Source: Octopus vulgaris (taxonomy: Eukaryota). From it: a stretch of DNA of 64,000 nt. Position numbers and translations under genes: made by a program. Below, piece after piece: positions 33,077 to 63,099 of this stretch; within the stretch, counting starts at the first letter, position 1, and each line of letters starts with the position of its first letter. The notes under the pieces are model-generated. The model saw nothing but the letters and a program-made list of their open reading frames with translations. It was not told the DNA's origin and made no database searches. The stretch lies in NCBI GenBank assembly GCA_951406725.2, contig OX597839.1, positions 9,486,001 to 9,550,000 of the forward strand, in the 5' to 3' direction.

Positions 33077-33187
33077 ATTTATGTTATGTTATTTATGTTA
33101 AATATATATATATTAAATATATTTATGTTAAATGTTATTCTACATCTTTTTATCATTTATTTCAGCTAAAGCTTATGTTGGACCAAG

Positions 33188-33533
33188 ATGCCACCAAGCT
33201 CAGGAGAACTATGGGGCCTACATTTGATGCCTTCACAGATCGATGTCGATTGTCTGTTGCCAACAGGAATTTTAGTACCTCTTCGTTGTAATCGCAATGC
33301 CACGCTAGAGAGTATCAAGACAGACCTCTGGGTAGAGGCAAAGAAATACCCATTCCATACAAAACTCCTAAACCCAACCTCATATGTATTTGTCAGCATC
33401 ACACAAGATGCTGAACATGAGGAATTCTTTGATGAAACTAAAAGACTTTGTGATTTGAGACTTTTCTTGCCTTGGCTGAAGGTTGTTGAACCCGAGGGTA
33501 ACAGAGAAGAGAAAAAATTGAATTATGAAATTG
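33188..33533 (+). CDS. PIK3CA: PIK3CA coding exon 1 (adaptor/p85-binding domain); exon begins at 33166
   Basis: [15 protein letters not shown]...[16 protein letters not shown]...[13 protein letters not shown]. Acceptor ttcag ends at 33165; donor G|gtgagt, phase 1. Confidence 0.96.
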
Positions 33534-39500: not shown

Positions 39501-42500
39501 ATTTTAATATTGGTTGATATATTTTCCTACATCTCTGATGAAACTTAGTAGGATTCATTGCTGTCTCCAAGCATTTAAGGTTTTCAGAAAATTCTGATGG
39601 GATATATTGAATAGTTTTCTTATATCCTGCTTCCCTAAGTGCACTGTTAAAGAAGTCTACGTTTTGGTTAGAAATTTCTTTGTCAGCTGATAAATTAGAA
39701 ATTCTGGAAGAAGCACTATTGATAATAGAATTCATAACAGCCCTTGGATGACTGGATTTTCTATCCATGTTGTTGAGGTTTCCGTTTGGCTTATGATATG
39801 TTCTATATGGACCTGTATTTAGCTTAAGCATAACATTGAGGAAATAGATCACCCTATGTTCATCCTCAATGGCTATGGATAAATCTGTTTTTTAAATTTT
39901 TTAAAGATATTTCCAAGTCTTTTACCAATCCTTTCAATTTCTACAGCGTTGGAGTCCCAGAAAATGAATAGTGCATCTTCCCAAGACATACTGCCCACAA
40001 TATCCAGAAAATCATTTTTAATCTACTCAAAATATAAATGCCTATTAAGTCTGTAATCTGTATTGAATCACTTGAACCCATGATCACATAATTTTTTAAC
40101 CTATCTTTCCTATTCCAGAACTTCCTAATGAAGTTAATAAGTTTTCTCCTAGAAGTAAGAATTATATATTTCTCCTAGATAATTTTGAGTTCTTAAAAGC
40201 AAAGATTCGAGATTTATCTAAAAGTATAGTGGTGACACTAGAATAGTAGCTGTTAATATTTACTTGAATAAATTTGCAATTCTTCTTATGGTGTAATTTT
40301 TTCAAAAATCAATCTATAACATTAGTTGTATTTGACCATAAGTCTCATTTCGCCTTAGTTATAAGTTCAGAAATAACTCTGTCTAAAATCTACTTGCTTA
40401 CACTACCTCTATTCAGTCGAAAGGAACAAATCAATCCTAACAAAATTTGGTTTGTGATCTTTCAAATTAATTTTAAGAAATTTAGGTGTAGTAGGCTCTG
40501 TACGATTCTCCATCCCAAGTTTACACACTATACTCTGGCATTCCTTATGAATATTCCTTTGAAGAGGTCCTTAAGTATCATGCCTTTATAATCCTCAATT
40601 TTTAGGTCGTAAAGATTCCCTGCCTTATTCAAATTTATAAGTATTCCAAAAGAGTTCTTCAATTTTAATTTTTCAATTCTTTCATCTTTTTGAGTTTGTT
40701 TGTGTGTGTGTGTGTGTGTACATATATATATCTATGTATAAATCGAAATTGAACCAATCATATGACTGGCACCCGGCAGTTGCCAGTGCTGCTGGACTGA
40801 CTCCTGTGCAGGTGGCAAGTAAAGAAACACCGTTTCGACCCTGTGCTTGAGGAGACCTATTGAGTCAAGTACATCAACATCAAAAATCAATGGAAATTGT
40901 AGTTGTGATCCCTGTGCCGGTGGCACGTAAAAAGCACCATCCGAACGTGGCCAATTCCAGCGCCACCTTGATTGGCTTCCGTGCCGGTGGCACATAAAAA
41001 GTACCAATCCGATCGTGGCCGTTGCCAGCCTCGCCTGGCACGTAAAAAGCACCCACTACACTCACAGAGTGGTTGGCGTTAGGAAGGGCATCCAGCTGTA
41101 GAAACACTGCCAGATCAGACTGGGGCCTGGTGCAGCCTTCTGGCTTCCCAGATCCCGGTCGAACCGTCCAACCCATGCTAGCATGGAAAACAGGCGTTAA
41201 ACGATGATGATGATGATGATACAGATATAAAAAGAAAGAGTGAAAGTGAGAGCAATAAAGAATGAGAAAGTTCAACATATTAGTAATTAATGTACAGCAT
41301 TCTTTATTTTTAGATGTTTTATTTATTCTTACTATCAAAACCGTTCCTGTCTGGGTTTATGCTATTTGTCCTATGTTACTTAGCAGCTCGCAATTATGAC
41401 ATAAGTGTAGCTGAGCAAGAATATATTTTGAACTATAAGAAGTATTTAACTGATTTTATTTTTACTTTGAGTAATTGACTTAAATCATATCTGACATTTA
41501 ATCTGCTAGGAGGTTCGTTGATGAAGGATTATATCCATTTGGTATATTTGCATGCTGTTAACACCCCCATGAAGTGAAATAAATTTATCCTCCATCACAG
41601 GTTTATTTCTTAAGTTGATTGTGTTTCAAGTCAGGATGTCTGAGGAAGTGAATGATCTGTAATATTATTACATATATTGCATAACTTTATATATAGTATA
41701 GGCGTAGGAGTGGCTGTATGGTAAATAGCTTGCTTACCAACCACATGGTTCCGGGTTCAGTCCCACTGCGTGGCACCTTGGGCAAGTGTCTTCTACTATA
41801 GCCTCGGGCCGACCAAAGCCTTCTGAGTGGATTTGGTAGACGGAAACTGAAAGAAGCCCGTCATATATATGTATATATATATATATGTATGTGTTTGTGT
41901 GTCTTTGTTTGTCCCCCTAGCATTGCTTGACAACCGATGCTAGTGTGTTTACGTCGCCGTCACTTAGCGGTTCGGCAAAAGAGAGCGATAGAATAAGTAC
42001 TAGGCTTACAAAGAATAAGTCCCGGGGTCGATTTGCTCGACTAAAGGCGGTGCTCCAGCATGGCCACAGTCAAATGACTGAAACAAGTAAAAGAGTAAAA
42101 GAGTAAAGAGTATGGAATAAATGTTTGGTTACAGAAATATTTATAATGTCGGTTTGACTTGATGTCCGAGACTTTGTGCAACCTGCATGCTCTTTTCTAT
42201 AATGCTTTGCCTGCACTCAATGAACAAAATTCCCATGATGCCTCGCGGTATACCAGTTTTTCTCTCCAGCAAACAACGTGACTCCTTCCTCTCTTTCGTC
42301 CACTCTGTCCACCCTGCTCTTGAATGCTTTTACTCTGTCTCCAGCATTGCTATTAACTTGATATTTCCATGGCCATCAACCATTCCTCTATCACTTCCAT
42401 CCACTCCAAGCTTACAGACTCCTACCTCAACTTCTCCTCCTCCTCCTCCTACCCTTCCTACACCAAAGTGTTCATCCCTTACTTGCAATTTCTCTTCTCT

Positions 42501-45500
42501 TGGCTCTGTAACGAGAACCATGACTTTAAAACATAGTCCCAACTCATGGATCGCCACTTCATCCAGTGGCGATTCCCTCCCCCACTGTTATTCAAACCAT
42601 CCTCACCTGTACCCAGTCTGTTGACCACTCATCCACCCTCTCTTTCCATACCCGCCTTACCCTTACCCACTTCCCTTTTCTCCTTACCTACCACCCTACC
42701 ACCATACCCCCCCAATGCTGTATATTACGCACTTTCCACCCATTCCTGTCCTTCTAATGGAACTCACCCTTTAGCAAATATTTAAAGTCTCCAGTTTGAG
42801 AATTAACATTCTCTCATCAGTCTTGGTGGCCGTACAAAGGATCACAGATACTGTCTTTGCTCCTCTAACTAAAAGATTCAATTTACTATAGACTCTGTAC
42901 TAATTATGTATAATTTTTTTTAGTTATGTGAATGTTGTGGTTGTGTTGTATTAAGATAGAATCTGTACTTTTAATTGTTGTCTTTTCTTATTCTTGTAGA
43001 TGTCTTTATCTGTGTGTAGATATTTATTATACTATCTGCTTCCGTGTCTCCCCTATCCCTGTTTCTCTCAAACAGAGACCAGTATGATCTTAATACAGTG
43101 ATACTTTTACTGGTCACTCAGATTTCCAGTACCTTATTTGTTTTTGTTATTTTTTTCCTTTATGAAATGAAGAAAATGGACTTTATTGATCTAATTTGAG
43201 GATGGAACTCCCACTGCCAGAGTTTGTATTTTCTGGCCTTGTTAAAATGCCTCCATGTCTGCTTGTGCAATTTGGATGCTAGACTTACACAATCACCTCG
43301 TTTAACATACCACTTGTCCCTTTACATGCTACTAGCAGGATACATTCTGTTGCAGACATTTGCGGCCAGGTTACCAGTTTTTTCCTTTCCCTTTCAGCAA
43401 GTCTTTACTTGCTGGGAGAAAACCCCCTGAAAAGAGGAGAGGAGTAAGGGGTAAAAAAAGCAGTCACAAAGGCAGCCCTTTTTCTTGTGACTAAAAACTA
43501 CACACACACACATACACACAGGGTGTTTAAGCTAAATTTGATTGTTTTTTTTCTATGTCTCCTTTTTTCAGAAACAGCTTGATGTATTGGTGAACTCTGT
43601 GCGGTGTTGGAGAGCATAAAGATAAAAATTGTAGTTGAGTTAGCTGACATAGAGGATTGGAGGCCATCTGAATATTTGAAAATAGTTACCTGTATCTTGA
43701 TGATTTGCACTGGGAATCAAAATGCTGGCATCATGACTACTGGTCAATGCTCTGAGAACATCGAAAAGGCTGTAAGATGTAACATGAACAGCTGCAATGG
43801 AGATTATGAAGTTAAGGCCAGCAGGCATTCTGACTATATCTGCACATTGGAATTCATCCCACATCTTTGAAGAGGGCCTTAGGCTCAGTTCAGAAGGCTG
43901 TGTGAAGCTGCTGTAGACTGGTCAAATTCTAACCGGAAGGGGTTGCTGCTGGATGGCCATATGTGTGGCAACAGGATTTGGCTCCTTGCCATACTTTTGG
44001 AAAGAGGCAGAAGTGGTTGTCAGCGAATTTCAACATCATCATCATTAGCTCCAATTTCTGGCTTCCAACTCCCCCAGATTGTAATCCCGTGGATTACTAT
44101 ATGTGGAGCACAGCTGAAGAGGACACCAACTACTGTCTGCAACACCAAGGCCAAGCTAGTGGTCAAAATTAAGGAGGCGTTCAAAGATCTTTCCAGGGGA
44201 CACAGTGAAGAATGCATGCACCAGGTTCCAGAGCTGTCTTGAGGTCACGGTGGAAGCTGAGGGTGGCTACTTTAAGAAAATTGTTATCTCCCAACCATAA
44301 TCTAGTTGATATTTTTTGAGTTTTTAAAATACTCGATGAGATATTCAGTTTTATTTTCTTTGTATGCAGACTGTCAAATTTAGCTCAAACACCCTGTTTA
44401 TATGAGGCGGGATGTCAAGTCCTTCAAGTTGCTGCCCCCCCCCCCCTCTCTTTTTTTTTATTGCTTTATATTTCCAAAGTAATGGGTAAAGATAATATAA
44501 TTTGATGTTTTATCTTGGAAATCAGTATTTTTCCCCCAGTGGCCTTGCAGTAACAGCTTCATCTTTAACAGGTCAACTGGCGCGAGCAACCTTCTTTCTT
44601 TGTCCTCCAGAATCGTCCACCTCAATTGAAACAGTGCAATGAATGCAGCAGAACAATTTTTTTGTCTTCGCTTGATGTCAGTGAGACTCTCCTCCAGTGC
44701 CAAGGTATGGACATGATGGACTCTTCATTACTACACAAAAAAAAAAAAAAAAAAAAAGAAATTGCAACAACCATTTCCAGAACCGTCTCATCCCACTGGC
44801 TACCTAACTAACTCCCTAACTCCAATGTGTTAGTAAACTGAACCTGCTGCTCTGAAATGTCCATCCTTGATGATGATGCTGCTGCCATCTTCAGGATCAA
44901 TACCCTTTTAACCACAACCCTTCAATCCTGTCTGTCTTCTGTTGATTTCTGATGCTGCCTTACGCTGATCTATACTGCATCTGCTTCCGACATCCTCAGT
45001 GTACTTTTACAGCTTTGTTAGCTTCCTACCTTGATTGAAATCTTTTTATCTTGCTCTGTCTCTCATCAGTTCCTCATTGACCTTAGCTTGCTCACCCCTA
45101 CACATAAACCACAGTCTCTTTCTCATTTGTCCATTCATCCTTCAGTTTGGATGTGGCTAGTGGCATTGCATCTCACTCTCTTCCTCTGTCTTTTCGCTTT
45201 CTTTCCTCTTTGTTCTCCTCACTTCTTACAACCCTAAACTGATCTTCAGATTTAACATGCACATATTTTCTTTTTTTTTGGTTAGGAATTGTCGTCTTGC
45301 CTACAACTTCTCAGCATGTTGCTGTTATTGATTATCTTCTTTCCTGCTCAAAAAGAAACGAAAAGCGTACATTATTTTCTTTTGCAAAAACTACTACATG
45401 CATGTGTGTTTGTTTGGGTTTTTAAATAAGAGAAAAAGAAATATATTCTCTGTGCATTCATATAGATACAGGGAGACTTAGAGATGCAGTGAACACTCAC

Positions 45501-48500
45501 CTTTGCATGAATGTAGATCTGTGTGTGTGTGTTCATATACATCTAGCAGTTTGGATAGTGTTAATGTACATAGAGCTCTCTAGTCTCAACAGTCATACAT
45601 CTAACTATACACACAATATACTGTAATATATAACGAGCAAAAAGACTGCTCTCTCTGCTCTCTGGGTGTTTTCTGCTGCTTGCTAAATGAATTCTAGTTG
45701 TTGTTAATTTTTCTAGTATGCTACATCCAATTTTCTTTTGAAGCCCTTATTTTTGAATAGTACTCATTCACTCAATAAATTTAGGTTATGACTACAAAAA
45801 TGTGTCCTGCTGAATTTGTTTCCCTGCAACTTTTTTTGAAAAATGGATATTTATTAATGAAGGTTTCTGGAAATAACTTTCAGAACTTTCAAATGGCGGT
45901 GCCCCAGCATGGCCACAGCTCATTAGCTGAAACTGGAAAAATCAAAATCAAATCAAAATCATAGTGTAGAAAATTATCATATCAGTATTTTTAGTGAAAA
46001 ACTTCTTGTCCCCACCAACATCGCTTGGCAACTGATGCTGGTGTGTTTATGTCCCCGTAACTTAGCAGTTCGGCAAAAGAGACCGATAGAATGTGTAAAA
46101 GAATTTCTAAGTGAAATTCTACTTGTACACACACATATATATATATACATATTCATATGGAATAAAGATATCTTGTAGAACAGATAAGGGCTGGTGACAG
46201 GAAAGTCCTTCAGTCTTAAAATACTGCTTCAGTAGCTCTCTGTTCTCCCCATGCCAGCGTAGAAAAATAAGCATAAAAAGAATCAATGAAAGAATAAAGG
46301 CATCACTGTCTTTCACTGTACATTTATGATTATGTCACAGTTACTGTTCTTCATTCTGATTCAGTAATTTTCTTGATTTTAAAAATATATTTTGTCAGAT
46401 TTGATGTTTTTCTTCTTTTTCTCATCTGAATTTAATTTCTTTCTTGTATCTCTGAATACAGCTGGTCTTTGACCATCCTTTCAATACTCTGCTTTTCAGT
46501 ATCAAATGTGTGGAGGCACATGGCCTAGTGGTTAGAGCAGCAGATTCACGGTCGAGGGATCGCGGGTTCGAATCTCAGACCGGGCGATGTGTGTGTGTTT
46601 ATGAGTGAAGCACCTAAGCTCCACGTGGCTCCGGCAGAAGGTAATGGCGAACTTCTGCTGACTCTTTCGCCACAACTTTCTCTCACTCTTTCCTCCTGCA
46701 TCTTGCTGCTCACCTGCGACGGACCGGCGTCCCGTCCAGGTGGGGAACCTATACGCCAAGGAAACCAGGAAACCGGCCCTTATGAGCCAGACATGGCTTG
46801 AGAAGGAACAAACAAACAAACAAGTATCAAATGTTACCATGTATTATTTGGTGGTTAATTGATTTTCTTAATTAATTTTATACTTTAATTCAGTTTAATA
46901 TTTAATTTGACAATTTTTTAAAGTTTCTCTTTCTCTCTCTCCCCATCTCTTCTTTGTATTACTATATTTTCTCAACTTGGAATTGATCTGCATGATACTT
47001 ATTAGTTTTATTCAACCTGGTCATTAAATGAAATACAAATGATACCCTAGGCGTAGGAGTGGCTGTGTGGTCAGTAGCTTGCTTACCAACCACATGCTCC
47101 CGGGTTCAGTCCCACTGCGTGGCACCTTGGGCAGGTGTCTTCTACTATAGCCTCGGGTCGACCAAAGCCTTGTGAGTGGATTTGGTAAACGGAAACTGAA
47201 AGAAGCCCGTCGTATATATGTATATGTATGTGTGTGTATATGTTTGTGTGTCTGCGTTTGTCCTCCCAACATCGCTTGACAACCGATGCTGGTGTGTTTA
47301 CGACCCCATAACTTAGCGGTTCAGCAAAAAGACCGATAGAATAAGTACTAGGCTTCCAAAGAATACGTCCTGGGGTCGATTTGGTCAAATGACTGAAACA
47401 AGCAAAAGAGTACTGGACTGTGTTGGATTTAATGGCCACAGTTTGCATAAGGATTTTTTTCTTATTCACATTTGAAGTAAATTTAATTTGAAAACAAAAA
47501 CAATGAATAAATTAAAATTTAGAAAGGACCTGGATATATTAAATTCAATTTAAAAAGAATATAAAAAGGTAAATTTTTTCTTGCTTCTCTGTTTTTCTCT
47601 GGTTTCAGAATCCAACTATGTAATTTCTTCAACCTGCTTGCGGATGCTACTGTTTATTATATCCAGTTTCATTTCATGCCTTTTTGTTTGTTTTTTTTCT
47701 TCTTTTTTAATATTTTTCTACTTTAACCCTTTAGCATTCAGATTATTCTGTCAAATGTATTATTTTTATATTTACATTGTTTTGAATTAATCATGCACTA
47801 TCTTGTAGTTTTCAGATTTCAACGACATGACTATATTTAGAATGACAAATGTTGGGTAGGTGTGAAAGGCCAGATCTGGCCAGTTTGACCATAAAGCAGG
47901 ATGAATATTTGGGCCAGAAATGGCTAGTTTAAATGCTTCAGTGTTAATATTGACTTTAACTTGAGTTTTTAACATTTAATATAATTTTTTCTTCTTTATT
48001 CATGTCTAAATTAATGTTAGTTCTGTTTAATTTTTCTTTTACATTTGTGTCTCACTTATTCACTCACTCATTCTTTTATTTCATTTTTCTTTCACATCTC
48101 CAGAGTCCAACTATGTGATAGTATGCATTTGGGTTTTATCCGACAATGATGACCGGCAGAAGTATTCCGTCAAAGTTCTACACACGGCTACTCCACAGCT
48201 CGTGATTGCAGAAGCAATTCGCAGGCGAACACGCAGCATGCAGCTAACAGCTGACCAGCAGCAGTCCTGCATCCAGCAGTATACCAATGCTTATGTGCTG
48301 AAAGTGTGTGGCTGTAACCAATACTTGCTGGAAGAGTATTCCCTCAGCCAATATAGGGTAAGTTCAAAGATATTATTTATTTTTCTGCTCTTCTCCTCTG
48401 GAAGCCAACTGCTCGCGATACCAGAGGGCGAACACTCTCCTACCCTGATGTAATCTCTAGGGATACAGGCATCCAGCAACAGGACCTCAGTAATGCTATG

Positions 48501-49373
48501 ATAGACTGTGAAGTCTGGCGTAACATGGTATATTCCATTGTCTCGACCATGGTCAAACAATGATGATGATGATGATTTTTGTAAGTGATGTATTCACTGA
48601 TGTTAGTGTTAGCAGTGACCAGAGATGTTTATGTTGTTGTTTAGCCTCAAGTCAGTCCCGATCCAATTGACCTATGATCAGTGACACTCCAGTTATGGCT
48701 CATCTGTATTTTATTAAGATATTAGTGTATCTATGGACAGAGATATGGCTTAGTAGGTAAGCTATTTGCTTCACAACCATGAGGTCTGGGTTCACTTGCA
48801 CTGCATGATACCATTGCGTTGAGTCAATCCAAGCCACAGTGAATGGCCAGCAACACTCACTGCAGTAGCCACTCCACCTCGTGGGGCTCATTTCTCTGAT
48901 GGGCCACTGCTATCCCTAATTTTGCACAGATTGTCAGTAGTACAGGTTTTGTGAGCACCTGACACCTAGACAGTAACTGGCACAAACTGATATTGGCTGG
49001 TCAGGCTCCTGTACTTATTGAGTTTTCTCTCTTCTGTGCTATGGGTAGCGACACTGGGGTAAGATGGTGGGGGTAACAAAAGTGGTAGGGCACCAAAGTA
49101 AATTTCCTTTTAGTGTTCACCCTGTCGTGATCCGGGAAAATGGAAACTGTTTAGAATCTTGTCAGTTGGACTCTACTTGTTATTTTGTTATTCAAAATTC
49201 AAACCTTGTCACATTTATATCCTGCTGATTCAACTTGAGAATTACATTAAGGGTATATCTGTCTGTGGTGAGCTGGCAGAAACGTTAGCATGCTGGGCGA
49301 AATGCGTAGCCATAATTTATCTGCCGTTACGTTCTGAGTTCAAATTCTGCCGATGTTGGGGGGACAAACACAG

Positions 49374-49404
<31 letters not shown>

Positions 49405-50405
49405 TATATATTTACACATATATACGATGGGCTTCTTTCAGTTTCCATCTACCAAATCCACTTACAAGGCTTTGGTCGGCCCGAGGCTATAGTAGAAGAC
49501 ACTTGCCCAAGGTGCCACACAGTGGAAGTGAACCCAGAACCATGTGGTTGGTAAGCAAAATACTTACCACACAGCCACTCCTACGCCTTTATCTAACTAT
49601 ATTGATGATAGTGATGATGATGATACCTCATTATTTGCTGTTCTATTGCAGTATATTCGTGAATGTATAGCCCGAGATAAAATACCCCAACTAATGTTGC
49701 AGACGAAAGATTCTGTTTATTTGGCAATACCTGAAAATATTTTTTGGATCCCAACATATGTACAGAAAGGTGAGCGAACTTCTTGAATTTCATTTTGTCT
49801 TGCATATTTATTTTTTTCTCTTCTGCGTCTTTTGCTTTCTTTGTCTTTCCCATCCTTCTTTCTGCCCTTTTTTTAAAACTATCTGGCTTCCGTGCTGGTG
49901 GCACGTAAAGATCACCATTTGAGCATGATCGTTACCAGCGTCGCCACACTGGAACTTGTGCCAGTGACACGTGAACAAAACATTTGAGCAAGGTCGTTGC
50001 CAGTGCCGCTGGACTGTTTCCTGTGCAGGTGGCACGTAAAAAACACCATTTCAAGCATGGCCGTTGCCAGTACCGCCAGACTGGCCCTCGTGCCGGTGAC
50101 ATGTAAAAGCACCCACTACACTCTCGGAGTGGTTGGCATTAGGAAGGGCATCCAGCTGTAGAAACTCTGCCAGATTAGATTGGAGCCTGGTGCAGCCATC
50201 TGGTTCGCCGGTCCTCAGTCAAATCATCCAACCCATGCTAGCATGGATAACGGACGTTGAATGATGATGATGATGATTGTCTATTATTTTGATATTCTCA
50301 GCTGGTTGAGATAACACTTCCAATCAGTTAAGATCAGAAGCCATGAGAGCCACTGTCTGGTATTGCATCAGGGCATTTATTATTATTATTATTATTTGGT
50401 TTTCC

Positions 50406-50453
<48 letters not shown>

Positions 50454-53400
50454 TTCCGTGCCGGTGGCACGTAAAAAGCACCATCCAATCATGGCCGTTG
50501 CCAGCCTCGTCTGGCACGTAACAAGCACCCACTACACTCACAGAGTGGTTGGCGTTAGGAAGGGCATCCAGCCATAGAAACATTGCCAGATCAGACTGGG
50601 CCTGGTGCTGCCTTCTGGCTTCCCAAACCCCAGTTGAACCGTCCAACCCATGCCAGCATGGAAAGCGGACGCTAAACGATGATGATGATGATGATGATGA
50701 TGATATATATTTTGTTTCTTTTTCCCCCATTTCTTTCAGGTGTGCAAGCATTGAATGATATTACGAAACAAGAAACTATTCCTATCTGGACTATCAAAAC
50801 TAAACTGCGCATCAAGATAAACAGTGCTACTTATGTCAATGTGAAAGGAGAAGGCAAGGTAAAATACAGGCGCCTCTTTTCTTTGAAGTTTTACTTGCAT
50901 TAATAAATATAATGACATGGGTGTAGAGTAAGTTCTGCCTTTCAAGCTTTTGGGGTTGATAAAATAAGTACCATTTGAACATTAGGGATGATGTAATCAA
51001 CTGACTGCCTCCCACGAAATTTCAGGCCTTTGTGCCTATAGTAGAAAGGGTTATTGACAATAGATTGGAAGAATGATTAGAGCATTGAACTTTATTCCTT
51101 GTTGTATTCAGTTAAATTCTTTTATGTTTTTAGTCCATATCCTGTTATGGCCAATTATGCCTTTTATCTTTTTTTTGGTGGGGTGGGGGTCAATAAAAAA
51201 CGTATCAGTCAAATACTGGGAATCAGTAACGTTGACTGAATTCCCTTTTCCCAGATTTCTACTCTCTTGGAACGCAAAGTAAAAATAATGCTTATTATTA
51301 TTGAATGTGTGTAAATGTTTCTTACCAAGCAAGTTTTTTACTACAGCCATGCCTCTGCTTAATATACAGGGTGCGGTGAATAAACCATCATCTAAATTAT
51401 GCAAAAATGAGAATAACTCTGACATCCCATTTTAACAGATATATTAACTCCATATTGAGTCTGAGACCATGTGGGAAGGTGAATGGAGGTATAACATTGC
51501 CATCACTAGTGATCACTTCAAACATGATGATGTTGACTGGATGTTTCATTTTGATCACTCTGTACATTTCCTCAGATTGACATCCAAACACTCTGAAATG
51601 TTTGTATTGGAGCTTCTGGTGCAAAACCAAGCAGTACAGCATGTCATTTCCAAATTTCTGGCTGAGTGAATTATGTCATGGTCCTATTTTTCTCACAGAC
51701 GGTGCCAGACTGACCCTACTATACTTTGTAGTTGACAAAATTAAAAACAAGCAGTGCGCACATGCGAAATTAAAAATATAAAATGGTGACAATTTATCCA
51801 TTGCACTTTGTATATATAAAACAGTGTACATAAGCAGGGAAAGAACTTATAGACTTTCTCAAAATAGTAGCCAAACATCCTTTGAACTACACAAAGTATT
51901 CCATATTTAATTCATAGTTTAACCCTTTAGCATTTAAACTGGCCATATCCAGCCATGATATTCTTCAAGTTTTAAGTGCAAACTGGCCAGATCCTGCCTC
52001 TTACTCCTACCTACAATGTCATTCTTAAAATAAGCAATCACATCACTGAAATCTTGAAGTTACAAAATAATTCATGAATAATTGTAAGCAGTGTAAATAA
52101 AAAGCATTACATTTGATACAATAATCTGCGTGCTGAAAGATTAAAGATCTCTTGTGAATCTTGTATTAAGAAATATTTCTTGCATTCTTTCTCTAGATTT
52201 ATGTGAAAACTGGTCTTTTCCATGGAACTGAACTATTGTGTCCAACCAAAGAAACTGAGTGTGTTGACTCTCTAAATCCCCGCTGGAACCAATGGCTTGA
52301 ATATGAAATTCCAGTATCTGAGATACCACGAAGTGCTCGACTCTGCCTTTCAATATGTTCTGTTGCTAAGCGACGGAAAACCAAAGTGAGTTTTTTTTTT
52401 TTTTTTTTTTTTGCACTTACCTGCTTTGAATATTCTGCATCATCATCAGCAGCAGTAGCAGTGGAGGTACAATGGCCCAATGGTTAGGGCAGCAGACTCG
52501 CAGTCGGAGGATCGCAGTTTCGATTCCCAGACCAGGTGTTGTGTGTGTTTATTGACCGAAAACACCTAAAGCGCCACGAGGCTCCGGCAGGGAGTGGTGG
52601 AGACCCCTGTTGTACTCTTTTGCTCCAACTTTCTCTCACTCTTTCTTCCTGTTTCTTGTCCCCGACTTCCTACGCAACCGCTGAGCCTGGATGCACATTC
52701 ATCCATCCGTCGATGCTCTCGGTGTTGGAGGTTGACCTGCTTTCTCTTCTGCGGGTCTTACGAATAGCAAAGGACCATGTTTCGGACTTCTATCTTGCGA
52801 GCTCTGGGACGAAGACCGTTCGCTCAACAGCAGCAGCAGCATTAGCACCAAAACCATCATCAGTACTAGCATCACCCATCATTGTGAACATTCATTTTGC
52901 ATCCATTTTCTATTCCACTGGTTGTTGGATGGATTTGCACGACTGATTCCTCCCATGCATATACATCCCACATCATCATCGTCATCATAATCATCATTTA
53001 ATATCTATTTCCCCTACTAGCATGGATTTGATGGTTTGACAGGATCCAGTGAGTCACAGGTCTGCATTGTGCCCCACGTCAACTTTGGCATGGTTTCTTA
53101 CAGCTGCAAGCCCTTTATAATGCTAACAACTTTTAAAGGCGGTGCTCCAGCATGGCCACAGTCAAATGACTGAAACAAGCAAAAGAATAACTTTACAGTA
53201 TGTGCTGAGTGCTTTTTATATGCCACCAGCACTAGTGGGATTGACAAGTAACTTGCAAGACAGGACAGTACAAGAAAAAGGAATGAAATAAGGGGTTGGG
53301 TAGACTGGGAAAGGTGCATTTGACCAAATAGGGGGAACATTTGAGAGATGAGAGAGAAGATTTTATGCCTGGTACAAACAGGAAGTCATTGTGGGGTTGC

Positions 53401-56400
53401 TTGACCTGTAACACACTGCACCTAAATCTTCCTCAGACGCTACTCAACCATCATCATCATAATCACCATGGCCACCACTGTCAGCTTCATCATCTCTACC
53501 AACATTGCCAGCGTCAGTTATCATTTCTGTTACCATCATCACCACCACTACTACCACCACAAGTCACTTCTAACACCACCCCTACCAGCACCATCACTAT
53601 CATCATCTCTTATCGCTTGTCACCTCTGTAAACACTGTCATCATCATCATCCTTACCATCTCATTCACCTGCAGCACCACCATCATCTTCATCACCATCT
53701 GTCTTCTATCATCACCATCTGTCTTCAATCATCACCATCTGTCTTCTATCATCACCATCTGTCTTCTATATCACCATTTGTCTTCTATCATCACCATCTG
53801 TCTTCTATCATCACCATCTGTCTTCTATCATCACCATCTGTCTTCTATCATCACCATCTGTCTTCTATCATTACCATCTGTCTTCTATCATCACCATCTG
53901 TCTTCTATCATCACCATCTGTCTTCTATCATCACCATCTGTCTTCTATCATCACCATCTGTCTTCTATCATCACCATCTGTCTTCTATCATCACCATCTG
54001 TCTTCTATCATCACCATCTGTCTTCTATCATCACCATCTGTCTTCTATCATCACCATCTGTCTTCTATCATCACCATCTTCATCATCACCATCTGTCTTC
54101 TATCATCACCATCTGTCTTCTATCATCACCATCTGTCTTCTATCATCACCATCTGTCTTCTATCATCACCATCTGTCTTCTATCATCACCATCTGTCTTC
54201 TATCATCACCATCTGTCTTCTATCATCACCATCTGTCTTCTATCATCACCATCTGTCTTCTATCATCACCATCTGTCTTCTATCATCACCATCTGTCTTC
54301 TATCATCACCATCTGTCTTCTATCATCACCATCTGTCTTCTATCATCACCATCTGTCTTCTATCATCACCATCTGTCTTCTATCATCACCATTGTCTTCT
54401 ATCATCACCATCTGTCTTCTATCATCACCATTTGTCTTCTATCATCATCTGTCTTCTATCATCACCATCTGTCTTCTATCATCACCATCTGTCTTCTATC
54501 ATCACCATCTGTCTTCTATCATCACCATCTGTCTTCTATCATCACCATCTGTCTTCTATCATCACCATTGTGTCTTCTATCATCACCATCTGTCTTCTAT
54601 CATCACCATCTGTCTTCTATCATCACCATCTGTCTTCTATCATCACCATCTGTCTTCTATCATCACCATTTGTCTTCTATCATCACCATCTGTCTATCTA
54701 TCATCACCATCTGTCTTCTATCATACCATCTTCTATCATCACCATCTGTCTTCTATCATCACCATCTGTCTATCATCACCATCTATCATCACCATCTGTC
54801 TTCTATCATCACCATCTGTCTTCTATCATCACCATCTGCTTCTATCATCATTGTCTTCTATCATCACCATCTGTCTTCTATCATCACCATCTGTCTTCTA
54901 TCATCACCATCTGTCTTCTATCATCACCATCTGTCTTCTATCATCACCATCTGTCTTCTATCATCACCATCTGTCTTCTATCATCACCATCTGTCTTCTA
55001 TCATCACCATCTGTCTTCTATCATCACCATTGTCTTCCATCACCATCTGTCTTCTATCATCACCATCTGTCTTCTATCATCACCATCTGTCTTCTATCAT
55101 CACCATCTATCATCACCATCTGTCTTCTATCATCACCATCTGTCTTCTATCATCACCATCTGTCTTCTATCATCACCATCTGTCTTCTATCATCACCATC
55201 TGTCTTCTATCATCACCATCTGTCTTCTATCATCACCATCTGTCTTCTATCATCACCATCTGTCTTCTATCATCACCATCTGTCTTCTATCATCACCATC
55301 TGTCTTCTATCATCACCATCTGTCTTCTATCATCACCATCTGTCTTCTATCATCACCATCTGTCTTCTATCATCACCATCTGTCTTCTATCATCACCATC
55401 TGTCTTCTATCATCACCATCTGTCTTCTATCATCACCATCTGTCTTCTATCATCACCATCTGTCTTCTATCATCACCATCTGTCTTCTATCATCACCATC
55501 TGTCTTCTATCATCACCATCTGTCTTCTATCATCACCATCTGTCTTCTATCATCACCATCTGTCTTCTATCATCACCATCTGTCTTCTATCATCACCATC
55601 TGTCTTCTATCATCACCATCTGTCTTCATCACCATCTGTCTTCTATCATCACCATCTGTCTTCTATCATCACCATCTGTCTTCTATCATCACCATCTGTC
55701 TTCTATCATCACCATCTGTCTTCTATCATCACCATTTGTCTTCTATCATCACCATCTGTCTTCTATCATCACCATTTGTCTTCTATCATCACCATCTGTC
55801 TTCTATCATCACCATCTGTCTTCTATCATATCATCACCATCTGTCTTCTATCATCACCATCTGTCTTCTATCATCACCATCTGTCTTCTATCATCACCAT
55901 CTGTCTTCTATCATCACCATCTGTCTTCTATCATCACCATCTGTCTTCTATCATCACCATCTGTCTTCTATCATCACCATCTGTCTTCTATCATCACCAT
56001 CTGTCTTCTATCATCACCATCTGTCTTCTATCATCACCATTGTCTTCTATCATCACCATCTGTCTTCTATCATCACCATCTGTCTTCTATCATCACCATC
56101 ACCTGTCTTCTATCATCACCATCTGTCTTCTATCATCACCATTTGTCTTCTATCATCACCATTGTCTTCTATCATCACCATTGTCTTCTATCATCACCAT
56201 CTGTCTTCTATCATCACCATCTGTCTTCTATCATCACCATCTGTCTTCTATCATCACCATTTGTCTTCTATCATCTACCATCTGTCTTCTATCATCACCA
56301 TCTGTCTTCTATCATCACCATCTGTCTTCTATCATCACCATCTGTCTTCTATCATCACCATCTGTCTTCTATCATCATCTGTCTTCTATCATCACCATCT

Positions 56401-59400
56401 GTCTTCTATCATCACCATCTGTCTTCTATCATCACCATCTGTCTTCTATCATCACCATCTGTCTTCTATCATCACCATCTGTCTTCTATCATCACCATCT
56501 GTCTTCTATCATCACCATCTGTCTTCTATCATCACCATCTGTCTTCTATCATCACCATTTGTCTTCTATCATCACCATCTGTCTTCTATCATCACCATCT
56601 GTCTTCTATCATCACCATCTGTCTTCTATCATCACCATCTGTCTTCTATCATCACCATCTGTCTTCTATCATCACCATCTGTCTTCTATCATCACCATCT
56701 GTCTTCTATCATCACCATCTGTCTTCTATCATCACCATCTGTCTTCTATCATCACCATCTGTCTTCTATCATCACCATTTGTCTTCTATCATCACCATCT
56801 GTCTTCTATCATCACCATCTGTCTTCTATCATCACCATCTGTCTTCTATCATCACCATCTGTCTTCTATCATCACCATCTGTCTTCTATCATCACCATCT
56901 GTCTTCTATCATCACCATCTGTCTTCTATCATCACCATCTGTCTTCTATCATCACCATCTGTCTTCTATCATTACCATCTGTCTTCTATCATCACCATCT
57001 GTCTTCTATCATCACCATCTGTCTTCTATCATCACCATCTGTCATCTATCATCACCATCTGTCTTCTATCATCACCATCTGTCTTCTATCATCACCATTT
57101 GTCTTCTATCATCACCATTTGTCTTCTATCATCACCATCTGTCTTCTATCATCACCATTTGTCTTCTATCATCACCATCTGTCTTCTATCATCACCATTT
57201 GTCTTCTATCATCACCATCTGTCTTCTATCATCACCATCTGTCTTCTATCATTACCATCTGTCTTCTATCATTACCATCTGTCTTCTATCATCACCATCT
57301 GTCTTCTATCATCACCATTTGTCTTCTATCATCACCATCTGTCTTCTATCATTACCATCTGTCTTCTATCATCACCATCTGTCTTCTATCATCACCATCT
57401 GTCTTCTATCATCACCATCTGTCTTCTATCATCACCATCTGTCTTCTATCATCACCATCTGTCTTCTATCATCACCATCTGTCTTCTATCATCACCATCT
57501 GTCTTCTATCATCACCATCTGTCTTCTATCATCACCATTTGTCTTCTGTCATCACCGTGATCACCATCACTGTTCTCATCATGCGTCACCTCTGTCATCA
57601 CTTCTGCCATAATCATGTTCGTCAATATTGTCACGGCTACTGACTCCCTATATTTTATTTGGCCGCAGGAGGAGATAAATGTCAAAAGCAAAGAAGTTGT
57701 TAAAAAGAAGGAAAGGAAAGAAAAGGTAAGGTTATTGTTATTTAAAGATCTGTGTAAGCATTTGTGTGTGTACACTGGTATACCTTTCTTTGGTCTTACA
57801 ATTGTCTCCTTAATGTTGTTGTTTAGCCCAAGGTCAGTCCTGATCCTGTCGACCTATGATCAGTGGTGTTCTAGTTGTGACCATCTCTTTCCCTATGTGC
57901 AAGCAACTCAGAATTACATGTTTCTTTTTTCTAAGAAAGTAATGTGTAATATGTGGAGGCTCAATCGCCCAGTGGTTAGGGCAGCGGACTTGCGGTTGGA
58001 GAATCACGGTTCCAATTCCCAGACCGGGCGTTGTATGTGTTTATTGAGCGAAAGCACCTAAAGCTCCACGAGGCTCCGGCAGTGGGGGGTGGCGACCCCT
58101 GTTGTACTCTTTCGCCTCAACTTTCTCTCACCCTTTCTTCCAGTTTCTTAAGTAACGCTGCGATGGACTGGTGTCCTGTCCAGCTGGGGGGAACACATAC
58201 GCCATAGAAACCGGGAAACTGTTTGGCTAAAAACATTAATTAAAAAATCTGTGAGCCAAATTGAACAGATCCGGGTTGAGTAGGATCTTTTTTAAGTTAA
58301 TATTTTATAGCTGGGTGCCTTTCCTGATGCCAACACTTTTAGTTATTTCTTATGGCATGCAGAAGCAGTGTACCCATAAAAATAAATGAGCATAATACTT
58401 GAATATTTAATATATATATATATGTATATTTAATACACATGTGCACACACACACGCACACACACATGCCAGGGTTATCTGTACCAGTTTCCACCTGTCTA
58501 ATTCTACTCAAAACAATTTGTGGAGGCACATGGCCTAGTGGTTAGAGCAGCGAACTCGTGGTCGAGGGATCGCCGGTTCGAATCTCAGACTGGGTGATGT
58601 GTGTGTTAATGAGCGAAACACCTAAGCTCCATGCGGCTCCGGCAGAAGGTAATGGCGAACTTCTGCTGACTCTTTCGCCACAACTTTCTCTCACTCTTCC
58701 CTCCTGCATCATGCAGTTCACCTGCGACGGATCGGTGTCCCATGCAGGTGGGGAACCTATACGCCAAGAAACCGGGAAACCGGCCCCTTATGAGCCAGGC
58801 ATGGCTTGATAAGGAACAAACAACAGCTCAAAACAATTTGGTCTACTTGGAAGACTATCATAGAGGATGCCTACTCAAGTTTCCACCATGCATTGAATGA
58901 AACTAGAGCCATATGGTTGGGGTGGTTTAGTGTACCTCTTAATCACACAAACTTGCTTGTACCAAACGATATGTATTTATCATTTGTTGATATTTTAAAA
59001 CTTGTTTTTCCATCTTGTTTCAGTTCGATTATGCTCTGGCCTGGGGTAATTTGCAAATGTTTGATTTCAACCACCGCCTGCTTAGTGATAAAGTGGGGCT
59101 TCATTTGTGGCCAATGCCTCAAGGCATGGATGAACTTCTCAATCCTATAGGAATACCAGGTAAAAGCATTTCCCTTTCTCTGTTTTTCTTGGACTTTTCC
59201 CTTCTCAACCCTATTATTGTCTAGAAGAAATTCTTGGCTTGGCTTGGCTTGGTTTAGCTTGGCTTGACTTCATGCTCTTGCTTGACAGGGCTGGAGTCAT
59301 TCCAAGTTAGTGGTCCCAGAGGCATCATTTAGTGTAGAGCCACCAGTACTCTCTATCGCTGGCAGTCCCATGCCAACACCTCTGCATACTTCCAGATGGC

Positions 59401-62400
59401 AGAAAGCCTCTGGAGATCTTCTCCAATCACATTCAGCCATCTGGTGTGGGGCCTGCCATAAGGCCTCTTCTGGCCTGCAGCTGCTGCATTGAAAAATGTT
59501 AAAAGCTAGTTTGGCAATTCAGTTTCTTTTCTTTTTCTATTGTTGACACCTTTCTTAAGCTTCAGTGTTTCTCCCATATCAGTACAGTAGTCTCCCTTCT
59601 CTCCAGTCTTCATTCCTATATATTGGTAGTCTTCTTTCTTTACCTGATAGTAATTTTCCACTCCGACTCTGCATAACAGCCAACATAACATCCATTTTTG
59701 CTAGGAATTTGCTTTGGACACAGTATCTGTTTCCTGACTTGGCTTTTTATCAATATATACAAAATAAGGAAATGGAGTAATACATCTTAATCAATAGTAA
59801 ACTACCAGATAATACCCAATCACATAATTTATTAAACCACTACATATGAACATTAAGGTCAAACATAATAATATAGAACAAAACAATGTACATCAATGAG
59901 TAATGAGATACAATAAGTACAGTATGTATAAGTGAATATAAATAAATACAAATATTGTACTCACAACCCCTATCTCAATTTGTAATTTTTATCAATATAA
60001 ACATGTAAGACAACAATTGCAGCGTGGAAGGTGTTTGTAAGTCATTTAAGAAACACACAAAAGCCGTTCGATTCACTTCAACATTTAAGTTTAATTTGTC
60101 AAAATATTTTTGTTGTTTTAAGACCGTGACCTGTTAGCACAGATTTTTGTCAGTGAACAGGTCACGGTCTTAAAGCGATGAAAATATTTTGACAAATTAA
60201 ACTTAAATGTTGAAGTGAATTAAACGGCTTTTGTGTGTTTCTTAAATGACTTACAAACACCTTCCACGCTGCAATTGTTTTTGTTTCAGCACACGATCTC
60301 AGATCAAATCACTTGCTATGCAAGTACATCTCCGTAAAACATGTAAGAGATTCCAAGGAAGGAATAAACTTAAAGAATATATGTATGTGTGACAATTTTC
60401 AACATGTGAACATGTGTATATGTGTTTCATCATCATCATCATCATTTAACGTCCATTGTCCATGCTGACATGGGTTGGCCAGTTTGACCAGGGCTGGTAA
60501 GCTGAGGGCTGCACCAGACTCTAATCACATTTGGCATGGTTTCTACAACTGGATGCCCTTCCTAATGCCAACCACTCCGAGAGTGTAATGGGTGCTTTTA
60601 CATACCACCGGCACGGGTCCCAGATGCATGACCCCAGTTACTGCCATGCCTATGATTTCACTTGGCTTGATAGGTCGTCTGCTCAAGCACAGCATATTGC
60701 CAAAGGTCCTGGTCATTTGTCATTGCCTCTGTGAGGTCAAGCACTTGAAAGGTGCTTTTTACATGTCACTGGCACACATGCTAGTTATGTGACACCGGCA
60801 TTGACCACATTGCCTCTATGAGGCCTAACACTCAAAAGGTGCTTTTTATGCGCCAGTTATGTGACACCGGCGTTGACCATGACTGATTTCACTTGGCTTG
60901 ACGGGTCTTCTCAAGCCCAGCATATTGCCAAAGGTCTATCTATATGTTTTTTTTTTTAATAATATGCACCATCCGATCGTGGCCGTTTGCCAGCCTCGTC
61001 TGGCACCTGTGCCGGTGGCACGTAAAAAGCACCCACTACACTCATGGAGTGGTTGGCGTTAGGAAGGGCATTCAGCCGTAGAAACATTGCCAAATCAGGC
61101 TGGGCCTGGTGAAGCCTTCTGGCTTCCCAGACCCCAGTTGAACCGTCCAACCCATGCTAGCATGGAAAGCGGACGCTGAACGATGATGATGATGATGATG
61201 ATACACCATATCATATTGGATATTTTAATGTAACCAAAGTAATTTTTGCCACCTACTCTCCTTTTCTTCCTCTTCTCTGTTATGACGTACTTAATCTGTC
61301 GATTTCATTTCAGGTTCAAACCCAAACAAAGACTGTCCAAGTCTGGATATTGAATTTGACAAATTTTCCCATTCTGTAACGTTTGATATGGAAAAATTTG
61401 ATAGATATTCCAAACAGAACTCGTACGATGGTTACGTACAAGATGGCTATGTGGATGTGAGTAGTTCTTTTATCTATTAAACTGCTTTAGTTTTTAATTT
61501 GAGAAATGGAGAATTGTTGCATATGGAGTATTAGAATTTGGGCTTTATGCTTTCTTATTTGGTATTAACCCTTTAGCATTTAAACCTGCTATCTCAGGCT
61601 CAAATAGTCTACCTTTCCTAAGTTAAAACTGACCAGATCCAGCCTTTCTCACCTGGCCTACAGTGTCATTCTGAAAATAAGCAATTACATCAACGAAATC
61701 TTGAAGTTTTGAGATAATGCATTGTTAACTTAAAAATGTGAACAGATGTATGTCAATAATTGTTTCTAATAGACATGGACATACAGACATCTCAAAAAAA
61801 TTATTCTTTCCTGACCTTTTTGCACCATTTCCATCATGAAATTTACAGATAAGCTTAGTTACTCCCTTCAGAAACCACATACCCAGATATGCTTAAAAGT
61901 TATTATCAACAAAAAAAAACAAACTCTTAAAATATTGGGGGGGACAAACACAGACACACACACACATATATATACATATACACAACAGGCTTCTTTCAGT
62001 TTCCGTCTACGAAATCCATTCACAAGGCTTTGGTTGGCCCAAAGCTATAGTAGAAGACACTTGGCCAAGGTGCCACGCAGTGGGACTGAACCCAGAAACA
62101 TGTGGTTGGTAAGCAAGCTACTTACCACACAGCCACTCCTGCACCTATAAGATAAAATTTTTTTTAAAATTACCTTAACTTTAACCTTTTAGTACTTAGA
62201 TTATTCTCTCAAACGTAATAAATTCATATTGTTTTGAATTAATCAAGCATTATCTTGTTGCTTTGAGATTTTGATGTTGTGACTGTTTATTTTTAGAATC
62301 ACATGGGACAGATAGGAGAGGCCAGATCTGGTCAGTTTGAGCATAAAACATGTGGAATAATTTGTTCGACCGTGGTCGAGACAATGGAATTTACTATGCT

Positions 62401-63099
62401 ACGCCAGACTTCATGGTCCATCATAGCATTACGGAGGTCCTGGTGTTGGATGCCTGTATCCCTGGAGATTACATCAGGGTAGGAGAGTGTGCGCCCTCTG
62501 GTATCGCGAGTAGATGGCTTCTAGAGGAGAAGAGCAGAAATTACCTCGTTTTCAGCTCTACAACAATGTCCCACAAACTGGACTCTTCTACCTTTCCTAC
62601 CTTTCCAGCTATAGAAAATCTGCCTCACCAAATTCTGTCTGATCCATGCTAGCATAGGTCAGATGATAAAATAAATGCTGATTATGGAACCAGAATAAAA
62701 TTTAGTTGATAGAACTTTCAGCAAAAGTATACTCTGTGACTTCTGAGCTGTTAGTTTCAACTGTAGTATGTGATTGTTTTTATTTTTTTTTAACTATAAT
62801 TTAGTCTCTTAGGGTAAAAAGAGGACATAGGTTTTATTTTAAATTGTTTCTATTTTATTTTTTCTTTATGCCAGAATAAGCAAGACATTACCTGTGAGAG
62901 GGGACAGTTGTCTTGTGTGATCATAGTAAAATTTAGTTGAGAGAACTTTTTTGGTAAAAGTATAATCTGCAATCTGTTGGTTTCTATTCTAGTATATAAA
63001 TCCGGATGCTAAACAGATGAAACAACTAGAAGAACTAGTCAGCCGAGATCCTTTATCTGAACTTTCAGAACAAGAGATGCTTTTTGTATGGCAACTAAG
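33188..63099 (+). CDS. PIK3CA: PI3K class IA catalytic subunit p110alpha-like, spliced and 3'-incomplete: join(33188-33533,34962-35171,48104-48357,49652-49769,50740-50858,52197-52385,[57669-57725 optional],59024-59159,61314-61456,62993-63099)
   Basis: All exons have GT-AG boundaries with compatible phases. The translation follows human p110alpha from [10 protein letters not shown] through RDPLSE..EQE. Confidence 0.95.
34439..34486 (+). ncRNA. Type I minimal hammerhead ribozyme, sense to the PIK3CA intron
   Basis: GTCT-CTGATGA-tGGGATAT(ctttt)ATATCCTt-GAAA-CAGCTG-TA-AGAC; GUA cleavage triplet. Confidence 0.7.
34962..35171 (+). CDS. PIK3CA: PIK3CA coding exon 2 (ABD-RBD linker)
   Basis: (G)[10 protein letters not shown]...[11 protein letters not shown]...[10 protein letters not shown]...KKLNR. 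210 nt; ttag acceptor, gtaggt donor. Confidence 0.95.
35287..35617 (+). mobile_element. tRNA-derived SINE family D
   Basis: A and B boxes (GAGTTCGAATCC); matches 3799-4133. Confidence 0.8.
36188..36398. repeat. 18-bp tandem repeat GAAACTTACTTTGAAAGT, about 11 copies
   Basis: Seen directly in the sequence. Confidence 0.9.
36849..37069. mobile_element. Mariner-type MITE (GTGCTGAAAAGTTCCTGG TIR)
   Basis: TIRs present; copies at 38276-38921, 63600-63660 and 63850-64000. Confidence 0.7.
37727..38151 (+). mobile_element. SINE family A
   Basis: Full-length copy inside a mariner remnant. Confidence 0.85.
38444..38861. mobile_element. MITE family F copy nested in a mariner-type MITE
   Basis: TIRs present; it interrupts the element at 38276-38921. 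Confidence 0.8.
39170..39498 (-). mobile_element. RTE-like LINE fragment
   Basis: [30 protein letters not shown] resembles the RTE ORF C-terminal region. Confidence 0.6.
39499..40690 (-). mobile_element. Penelope-like element RT remnant
   Basis: [18 protein letters not shown] and [37 protein letters not shown] (PLE RT palm/thumb); disrupted. Confidence 0.75.
40760..41220 (+). mobile_element. Non-autonomous retroelement family E (internal GTGGCACGTAAAAAGCACC repeats, (GAT)n tail)
   Basis: GGTTGGCGTTAGGAAGGGCATCCAGC core. Copies at 4429-4626, 14460-14716, 17778-18148, 21880-22116, 22538-22810(-), 27301-27560(-), 28601-28806(-), 31475-31890(-), 49883-50277, 50451-50704, 60428-60940(-) and 60966-61202. 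Confidence 0.8.
41700..42111 (+). mobile_element. SINE family A
   Basis: Full-length copy with a (GTAAAAGA)n tail. Confidence 0.85.
42240..42790 (+). mobile_element. Second, unrelated Penelope-like RT thumb remnant
   Basis: [27 protein letters not shown]...P.YTK..IPYLQFL motifs across frameshifts. Confidence 0.55.
43519..44396 (+). mobile_element. Internally deleted Tc1/mariner (maT-like) element
   Basis: TIR CAGGGTGTTTAAGCTAAATTTGA; WQQDLAPCH and [16 protein letters not shown] motifs. Relatives at 31330-32500 and 51367-51812(-). Confidence 0.75.
46509..46822 (+). mobile_element. tRNA-derived SINE family C
   Basis: TGGCCTAGTGG A-box, GGGTTCGAATCTC B-box and (AAAC)n tail. Related copies at 7186-7295, 15055-15340(-), 34080-34206(-), 37255-37570(-), 52460-52830 and 57953-58220. 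Confidence 0.8.
47048..47411 (+). mobile_element. SINE family A
   Basis: Near full-length copy. Confidence 0.85.
48104..48357 (+). CDS. PIK3CA: PIK3CA coding exon 3 (Ras-binding domain)
   Basis: (E)[10 protein letters not shown]...RQKYSVKV...[13 protein letters not shown]...[22 protein letters not shown]. ccag acceptor, gtaagt donor. Confidence 0.95.
48383..48576 (+). mobile_element. LINE 3'-end fragment with (GAT)n tail
   Basis: Homologous reverse copy at 62362-62540. Confidence 0.65.
49354..49587 (-). mobile_element. SINE family A, 5' half
   Basis: Reverse partial copy; a similar partial lies at 61936-62146. Confidence 0.8.
49652..49769 (+). CDS. PIK3CA: PIK3CA coding exon 4 (end of RBD, linker)
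   Basis: [23 protein letters not shown]...PTYVQK(G). gcag acceptor, gtgagc donor. Confidence 0.92.
50740..50858 (+). CDS. PIK3CA: PIK3CA coding exon 5 (start of C2 domain)
   Basis: (G)[39 protein letters not shown]. ttcag acceptor, gtaaaa donor; the N345-equivalent is conserved. Confidence 0.92.
52197..52385 (+). CDS. PIK3CA: PIK3CA coding exon 6 (C2 domain)
   Basis: [15 protein letters not shown]...[10 protein letters not shown]...[20 protein letters not shown]. ctag acceptor, gtgagt donor. Confidence 0.95.
53690..57550. repeat. Minisatellite, 20-bp unit CATCACCATCTGTCTTCTAT, about 190 copies
   Basis: Near-perfect tandem array with degenerate (CAT/CAC)n flanks. Confidence 0.99.
57669..57725 (+). 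CDS. PIK3CA: Candidate 57-nt in-frame cassette exon [19 protein letters not shown] in the C2 polybasic loop
   Basis: Branch-point-like TACTGAC near 57638, pyrimidine tract, gcag acceptor and AAG|gtaagg donor. Phase 0/0 matches the flanking exons; purine-rich, no stop codon. Confidence 0.7.
58519..58825 (+). mobile_element. SINE family C
   Basis: Near-identical to 46509-46822. Confidence 0.8.
59024..59159 (+). CDS. PIK3CA: PIK3CA coding exon 7 (C2 domain)
   Basis: [15 protein letters not shown]...[20 protein letters not shown](G). ttcag acceptor, gtaaaa donor. Confidence 0.95.
60012..60338. mobile_element. Second copy of the palindromic PLE-like element
   Basis: Same arms and tail as 29878-30213, with a different central junction. 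Confidence 0.75.
61314..61456 (+). CDS. PIK3CA: PIK3CA coding exon 8 (end of C2, linker); too short for the ORF track
   Basis: (G)[27 protein letters not shown]...DGYVD matches human GSNPNKETPCLELEFD. ttcag acceptor, gtgagt donor. Confidence 0.93.
62993..63099 (+). CDS. PIK3CA: PIK3CA coding exon 9 (start of helical domain, E542/E545 region); too short for the ORF track
   Basis: [35 protein letters not shown](R). ctag acceptor, AG|gtaagt donor, phase 2. Confidence 0.93.

Follow-up and report, generated by a model that had tools for sequence, protein, structure and literature searches.

The stretch of DNA analysed here, referred to as the window, comprises 64,000 nucleotides of Octopus vulgaris (contig OX597839.1), and it contains the first part of a PIK3CA-like gene. 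The features used in this report, with positions counted from the first letter of the window, are as follows.

33188..63099, + strand: coding exons 1-10 (residues 1-559) of a p110alpha-type, PIK3CA-like gene that extends beyond the window
52197..52385, + strand: upstream exon, residues 350-412 (C2 domain), ending with the ancestral basic patch KRRKTK, phase 0
53689..57556, + strand: locus-specific 20-nt minisatellite of about 195 copies, ending 112 nt before the acceptor, with 580 YCAY and no AG
57640..57668, + strand: acceptor region with a branch-point-like CTGAC (57640-57644), a pyrimidine tract (11/17) and a CAG acceptor
57669..57725, + strand: 57-nt coding exon, phase 0/0, residues 413-431 of the p110alpha-type protein, from translation and transcript contigs
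57726..57731, + strand: donor gtaagg; AAG/GTAAGG agrees with MAG/GTRAGT at 8 of 9 positions
59024..59159, + strand: downstream exon, residues 432-476, with Y434 (its third residue) opposite C420 of vertebrate p110alpha in the alignment

A p110alpha-type gene with a 57-nt exon

The ten coding exons in the window encode, letter for letter, the first 559 residues of P0108, a protein of NCBI and UniRef named Octopus p110alpha-like. The 57-nt exon is the seventh of them, and it is already part of deposited gene models. P0108 scored 1328 bits to p110alpha, 799 to p110beta and 780 to p110delta, and its structure model matched p110alpha structures with a TM of 0.82. The cluster representative carries PF02192, PF00794, PF00792, PF00613 and PF00454, i.e., the full set of ABD, RBD, C2, helical and kinase domains. 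In a quick tree of 31 proteins (SH-aLRT support only, midpoint root), P0108 was placed among mollusc and annelid proteins, in a clade with vertebrate alpha (SH-aLRT 97-99). As judged from these sequence comparisons, the octopus protein stays alpha-type and is a class IA PI3K p110alpha orthologue. Another deposited model, P0110 (1097 aa), begins at a far upstream exon (5898-6059), reads the start of the first coding exon (33151-33297) in another frame, and then rejoins. This far upstream start is likely a prediction artefact or a 5' UTR exon.

The coordinates, phases and splice signals that an earlier note had given for the 57-nt exon were all borne out when the sequence was read again. The upstream exon ends in phase 0 at AAA/gtgagt. 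The 57-nt exon lies between a gcag acceptor and an AAG/gtaagg donor, its translation is stop-free, and the 6.6 kb that separate the flanking exons contain no other in-frame, stop-free YAG...GTRAG candidate of 30-90 nt. The other nine donors of the gene in the window match the consensus at 7-9 positions, and the pyrimidine tract of the exon is at the lower limit of the range among the introns of the gene (11-16). Both splice sites are of ordinary to high strength, on a par with those of the neighbouring exons. The exon encodes 8 Lys/Arg and 5 Glu; 84% of its bases are purines, and it has 7 GAR motifs. A single copy is present in the genome. An origin as a copy of a neighbouring exon end was unsupported: no copy was detectable, and 552 and 737 of 2000 shuffles scored as high. 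With canonical splice sites, an open frame and a presence in transcripts, all the marks of a coding exon were found. In the data examined, the 57-nt exon is a real and expressed one that is limited to cephalopod-type proteins, and the label of cassette, used in the earlier note, is an interpretation rather than an observation.

Inclusion of the exon and the upstream repeat array

Contigs from four of the 24 listed runs (X1, X3, X6 and X13; tissues unspecified, RNA status as guessed by the tool) were mapped on 57590-59200. In each of the four, one contig of 1,531-3,574 nt joined the 57-nt exon to the downstream exon; these are counts of assembled contigs, which drop rare variants, and not of junction reads. 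The contig border lay at 59022 in all four, which is the position expected from inclusion, with AG shared with the genome; skipping would start at 59024. The depths over the 32 covered bases of the exon and over the next-exon contig were 66.5 and 66.4 (X1), 18.2 and 18.2 (X3), 129.2 and 129.1 (X6), and 51.6 and 51.7 (X13), and the depth in the adjoining intron was 0 in every run. The first bin of the downstream exon exceeded the expectation by 1.9 in X3 and 4.7 in X6, and nearby intron bins had small stray depth. We read this excess as probably due to unrelated pieces. Contigs of such length would presumably be interrupted if a skipped form were common.

The exon was also present in all seven cephalopod-type proteins, which belong to two clusters. 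Four of the seven are Logan proteins representing 178 Logan contigs (16+29+132+1). No skipped cephalopod-type protein was found in a loop-centred search (64 matches of 120 candidates), and a weak search for shorter proteins with the loop gave none at E<=0.001 among 20 candidates. Alternative splicing of the exon, as proposed in the earlier note, thus found no support in either the seven proteins or the four runs, and constitutive inclusion in nearly all transcripts is likely, although rare or tissue-limited skipping may occur.

The rival view is that the exon is a regulated cassette, skipped in some tissues, for example through Nova- or PTB-type proteins on the upstream YCAY/UCUU-rich array, so that short- and long-loop isoforms are made. 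We consider this unlikely. Its phase 0/0 is symmetric, and skipping would restore a loop of 14 residues, the common mollusc length; however, symmetry is required of any exon that newly arises in a phase-0 intron. The loop after skipping would thus not have exactly the human-alpha length that had been proposed, since vertebrate alpha has 15. The minisatellite creates an AG-free zone of 3,994 nt, and the 300 nt before the acceptor contain 40 YCAY; in 200 windows taken outside the array, the mean was 5.2 and the highest count 38. On the other hand, the array is found at this single locus (97 of 97 three-unit matches at 53689-57556), and CAT-type repeats are common in the window.

Nova/Pasilla sites just upstream of exons silence them and accompany skipping, and such motifs are frequent and often functionless (PMC3165201); the YCAY-rich array favours regulation, and we regard it as a lead, not as evidence of skipping. 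Splicing variation in octopus is described as highest in neural tissue (PMC9699675), a further point for regulated skipping. This source also provides a long-read annotation, which may hold isoforms of the p110alpha-type gene; the gene is unnamed in its readable supplements. Neural microexons of the eMIC type are characterised by weak splice sites and by a UGC that lies near the 3' splice site (PMC8797185). The 57-nt exon resembles microexons and cassettes regulated by eMIC/Srrm234 or Nova in being short, frame-keeping, placed in a surface loop, and preceded by a YCAY cluster. It differs from them in its length of 57 nt, in its strong donor, in the absence of UGC within 60 nt of the acceptor (the nearest TGC is at -64), and in that no skipped form was seen. 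An AG-free zone and a branch-point motif are present by the exon, the long zone being due to the repeat array.

Two further properties of the repeats were observed. The minisatellite is stop-free on the + strand, so that all three of its frames appear open, spuriously, over 1,326-1,405 codons. The introns on either side of the exon contain repeat copies (57950-58230, 58520-58825 and 52460-52680) that we take to be SINE-like and that are highly transcribed, with depths up to 200,000.

The earlier note had also named the A-rich Lys codons of the exon as potential ADAR targets. Among 40 of the 84 listed rows of RNA-DNA differences, none fell in 57669-57700; positions 57701-57742, in the A-rich half, were skipped as repeat. 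No A-to-G-type loop variant was present among the seven long-loop proteins, and the sole loop difference among the four Logan proteins was one Asp/Glu. Outside the loop, P0001, P0002 and P0111, which are otherwise identical, have single differences at residues 294 (Thr/Ala) and 209 (Lys/Arg). These are compatible with A-to-G recoding, and alleles or species differences are equally possible.

Distribution of the long loop

The loop was measured in 131 of 153 proteins; among the 22 missed by the pattern, P0120, P0122 and P0131 are short by eye. It had 12-16 residues in 124 of the 131, and the other seven, with 33-34 residues, were the cephalopod-type proteins. In mostly mollusc clusters, 39 of a further 45 members had a loop of 14-17 residues. 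The measured taxa with 12-17 residues include other molluscs, annelids, arthropods and vertebrates. P0180, P0182 and P0186, from a scallop-containing cluster, have 17 residues, an independent small extension. Longer oyster isoforms were considered as long-loop forms and rejected, because they differ at the N-terminus or elsewhere and not in this loop.

The long-loop set consists of P0108, P0109 and P0110, with an identical insert of 19 residues, and the four Logan proteins (1071 residues), with a homologue of 20 residues. One of the latter, P0002, shares 89% identity with P0108 and pairs with it as a sister in the tree; the four probably come from squid or cuttlefish. The insert has changed more than the remainder of the protein: 12 of 20 residues are identical to the Logan homologue, against 89% overall. 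Two proteins with a loop identical to that of the oyster cluster, P0007 and P0014, run into unrelated sequence at the point of exon insertion, and the shark fragment P0018 stops at the same point of the loop. Breaks at one point in these three proteins fit an old intron there. The exon was likely gained in the cephalopod line inside this old phase-0 intron. The time of the gain is putative, and no Nautilus protein was identified among the proteins compared.

Taken together, the exon is likely a lineage-specific and constitutive addition to a loop that occurs in many lengths. The cephalopod Pax-6 variants are another case in which coding sequence was added to a conserved gene; these are reported as splice variants (PMC3942700), whereas the octopus PI3K exon looks constitutive. 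No report of the exon appeared, by title or start of abstract, in the literature on cephalopod microexons, octopus PIK3CA, coleoid splicing, or mollusc class IA phylogeny.

The lengthened CBR3 loop

The insert falls in the CBR3 basic loop of the C2 domain. The basic residues of CBR3 in mammalian p110alpha, K410, R412, K413 and K416, bind PI3P, and both endosomal localisation and the activation of Akt depend on them (PMC11380499; PMC5350601). The place in the polybasic C2 loop given by the earlier note was thus correct; C420, which it had brought into connection with the loop, aligns with Y434 of the next exon, outside the insert. The gene is orthologous to PIK3CA, the loop is the same, its basic patch is kept in the upstream exon, and the intron is apparently at the same point. 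The cephalopod loop differs in having 19-20 extra residues from a separate exon, which makes it 33-34 residues long instead of 14-15.

In octopus, the loop has 14 residues without the exon and 33 with it, and its charged residues increase from 5 basic and 1 acidic to 13 basic and 6 acidic. The net addition is +3, five Glu offsetting much of the gain. The counts with the exon are identical in both cephalopod types, despite 8 changes between them. Residues 410-429 of the P0108 model, between two confident strands, have pLDDT below 50, a value that partly reflects thin data, as the insert is present in only 3 of 42 aligned rows.

The explanation that we favour, with a probability of about 60%, is that a real coding exon, likely gained by cephalopods in an old phase-0 intron and likely included almost universally, lengthens CBR3 from 14 to 33 residues by a predicted disordered, net-basic arm that would strengthen or retune binding to anionic membranes. 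The exon would be spliced in by default, and the flexible arm would bring the loop to its raised content of charged residues. By analogy with mammalian CBR3, the arm may lengthen the electrostatic reach towards anionic membranes, or it may change contacts in the neighbourhood of p85. For the membrane role of the lengthened loop taken by itself, we put the chances at even.

It is also conceivable, but improbable in our view, that the insertion is close to neutral and is tolerated by a surface loop accepting many lengths, and that it was fixed in the cephalopod ancestor and kept only for the frame. The low pLDDT of the loop and the lower conservation of the insert are in line with this. Among class I PI3K representatives (50% clustering), the length of CBR3 ranges widely (e.g., 7, 29, 38 and 46 residues), several having 26-46. 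Long basic loops have thus arisen more than once, and the arm may be nearly neutral. Against neutrality, none of the other alpha-type proteins measured departs from a loop length of 12-17 residues, and the charge pattern has been kept between the two cephalopod types.

A nuclear role of the exon was considered as well. The earlier note had stated that the loop is longer in p110beta and p110delta and carries the nuclear localisation signal (NLS) of p110beta, and this was confirmed: the p110beta loop (PDB 2y3a) has 33 residues and contains KVKTKKSTK, reported as the NLS in PMC11720314, and the p110delta loop has 23. A result of Kumar 2011 is relayed by PMC4394695. The included octopus loop is equal in length to that of p110beta and is likewise lysine-rich. 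However, it belongs to the other paralogue lineage, has no alignable motif, lacks KVKTKKSTK, and contains more acidic residues, and nuclear localisation is putative.

Octopus has a second class IA PI3K gene of the beta/delta type (L005; G000:C12:24848902-24852099, - strand). Its exons match best with P0228 (60-79% identity), a protein named beta-like whose scores to delta and beta exceed that to alpha and which lies in the beta/delta clade. This gene was found by a PF00792 search of the genome; the ABD-exon and PF02192 searches detected only the p110alpha-type gene and missed it. A third PF00792 match, L003, has weak similarity to class I proteins and is presumably Vps34-like. The beta/delta-type gene also has a phase-0 intron in the CBR3 loop, its loop has only 16 residues, and no micro-exon candidate was found in the matching intron. 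The pattern of loop lengths in the two octopus genes is thus the reverse of the mammalian one. Molluscs are reported to keep both class IA genes (PMC4617754). With a separate beta/delta-type gene in the genome, one gene need not play both parts, and the proposal of the earlier note that one gene switches between alpha-like and beta/delta-like forms by splicing is unsupported: no skipped form was seen, and the protein is alpha-type by its bit scores.

It is quite improbable, in addition, that the exon provides cephalopod p110alpha with a p110beta-like NLS, the alpha gene having taken over a nuclear role and the beta/delta-type paralogue having remained short-looped. Its basis is the shared length of 33 residues with p110beta, the short loop of the octopus beta/delta-type gene, and a bipartite NLS pattern that inclusion creates in both cephalopod types tested and that is absent from six other loops tested. 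We rejected this pattern as evidence, because 79% of shuffles of the exon peptide also gave it, and it therefore reflects composition. The upstream exon contains KRRK, which resembles a monopartite NLS and would be retained on skipping. Beyond lysines, there is no sequence likeness to the p110beta loop, and mammalian p110alpha, which has no classical NLS, nevertheless enters the nucleus (PMC10130476). P0222, the sister of the cephalopod beta/delta-type protein, is also short-looped, and the short loop need not be tied to the gain. A still bolder combination, in which the new exon gave coleoid p110alpha a p110beta-length loop with a working nuclear signal, the beta/delta-type gene being short-looped, and the YCAY-rich array lets some neurons skip it and switch between nuclear and membrane pools, is very far from probable.

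Skipping or nuclear import, if true, would raise the importance of the exon; on present evidence, it is an exon known from existing annotation, in a loop of variable length. The reading that we prefer, a default-included extension of CBR3 with a possible membrane role, concerns a protein that is highly conserved, and in the alpha-type proteins measured outside cephalopods CBR3 has 12-17 residues. The doubling of this membrane-binding loop in cephalopods alone offers a natural experiment on how the charge and length of the C2 domain set PI3K recruitment.
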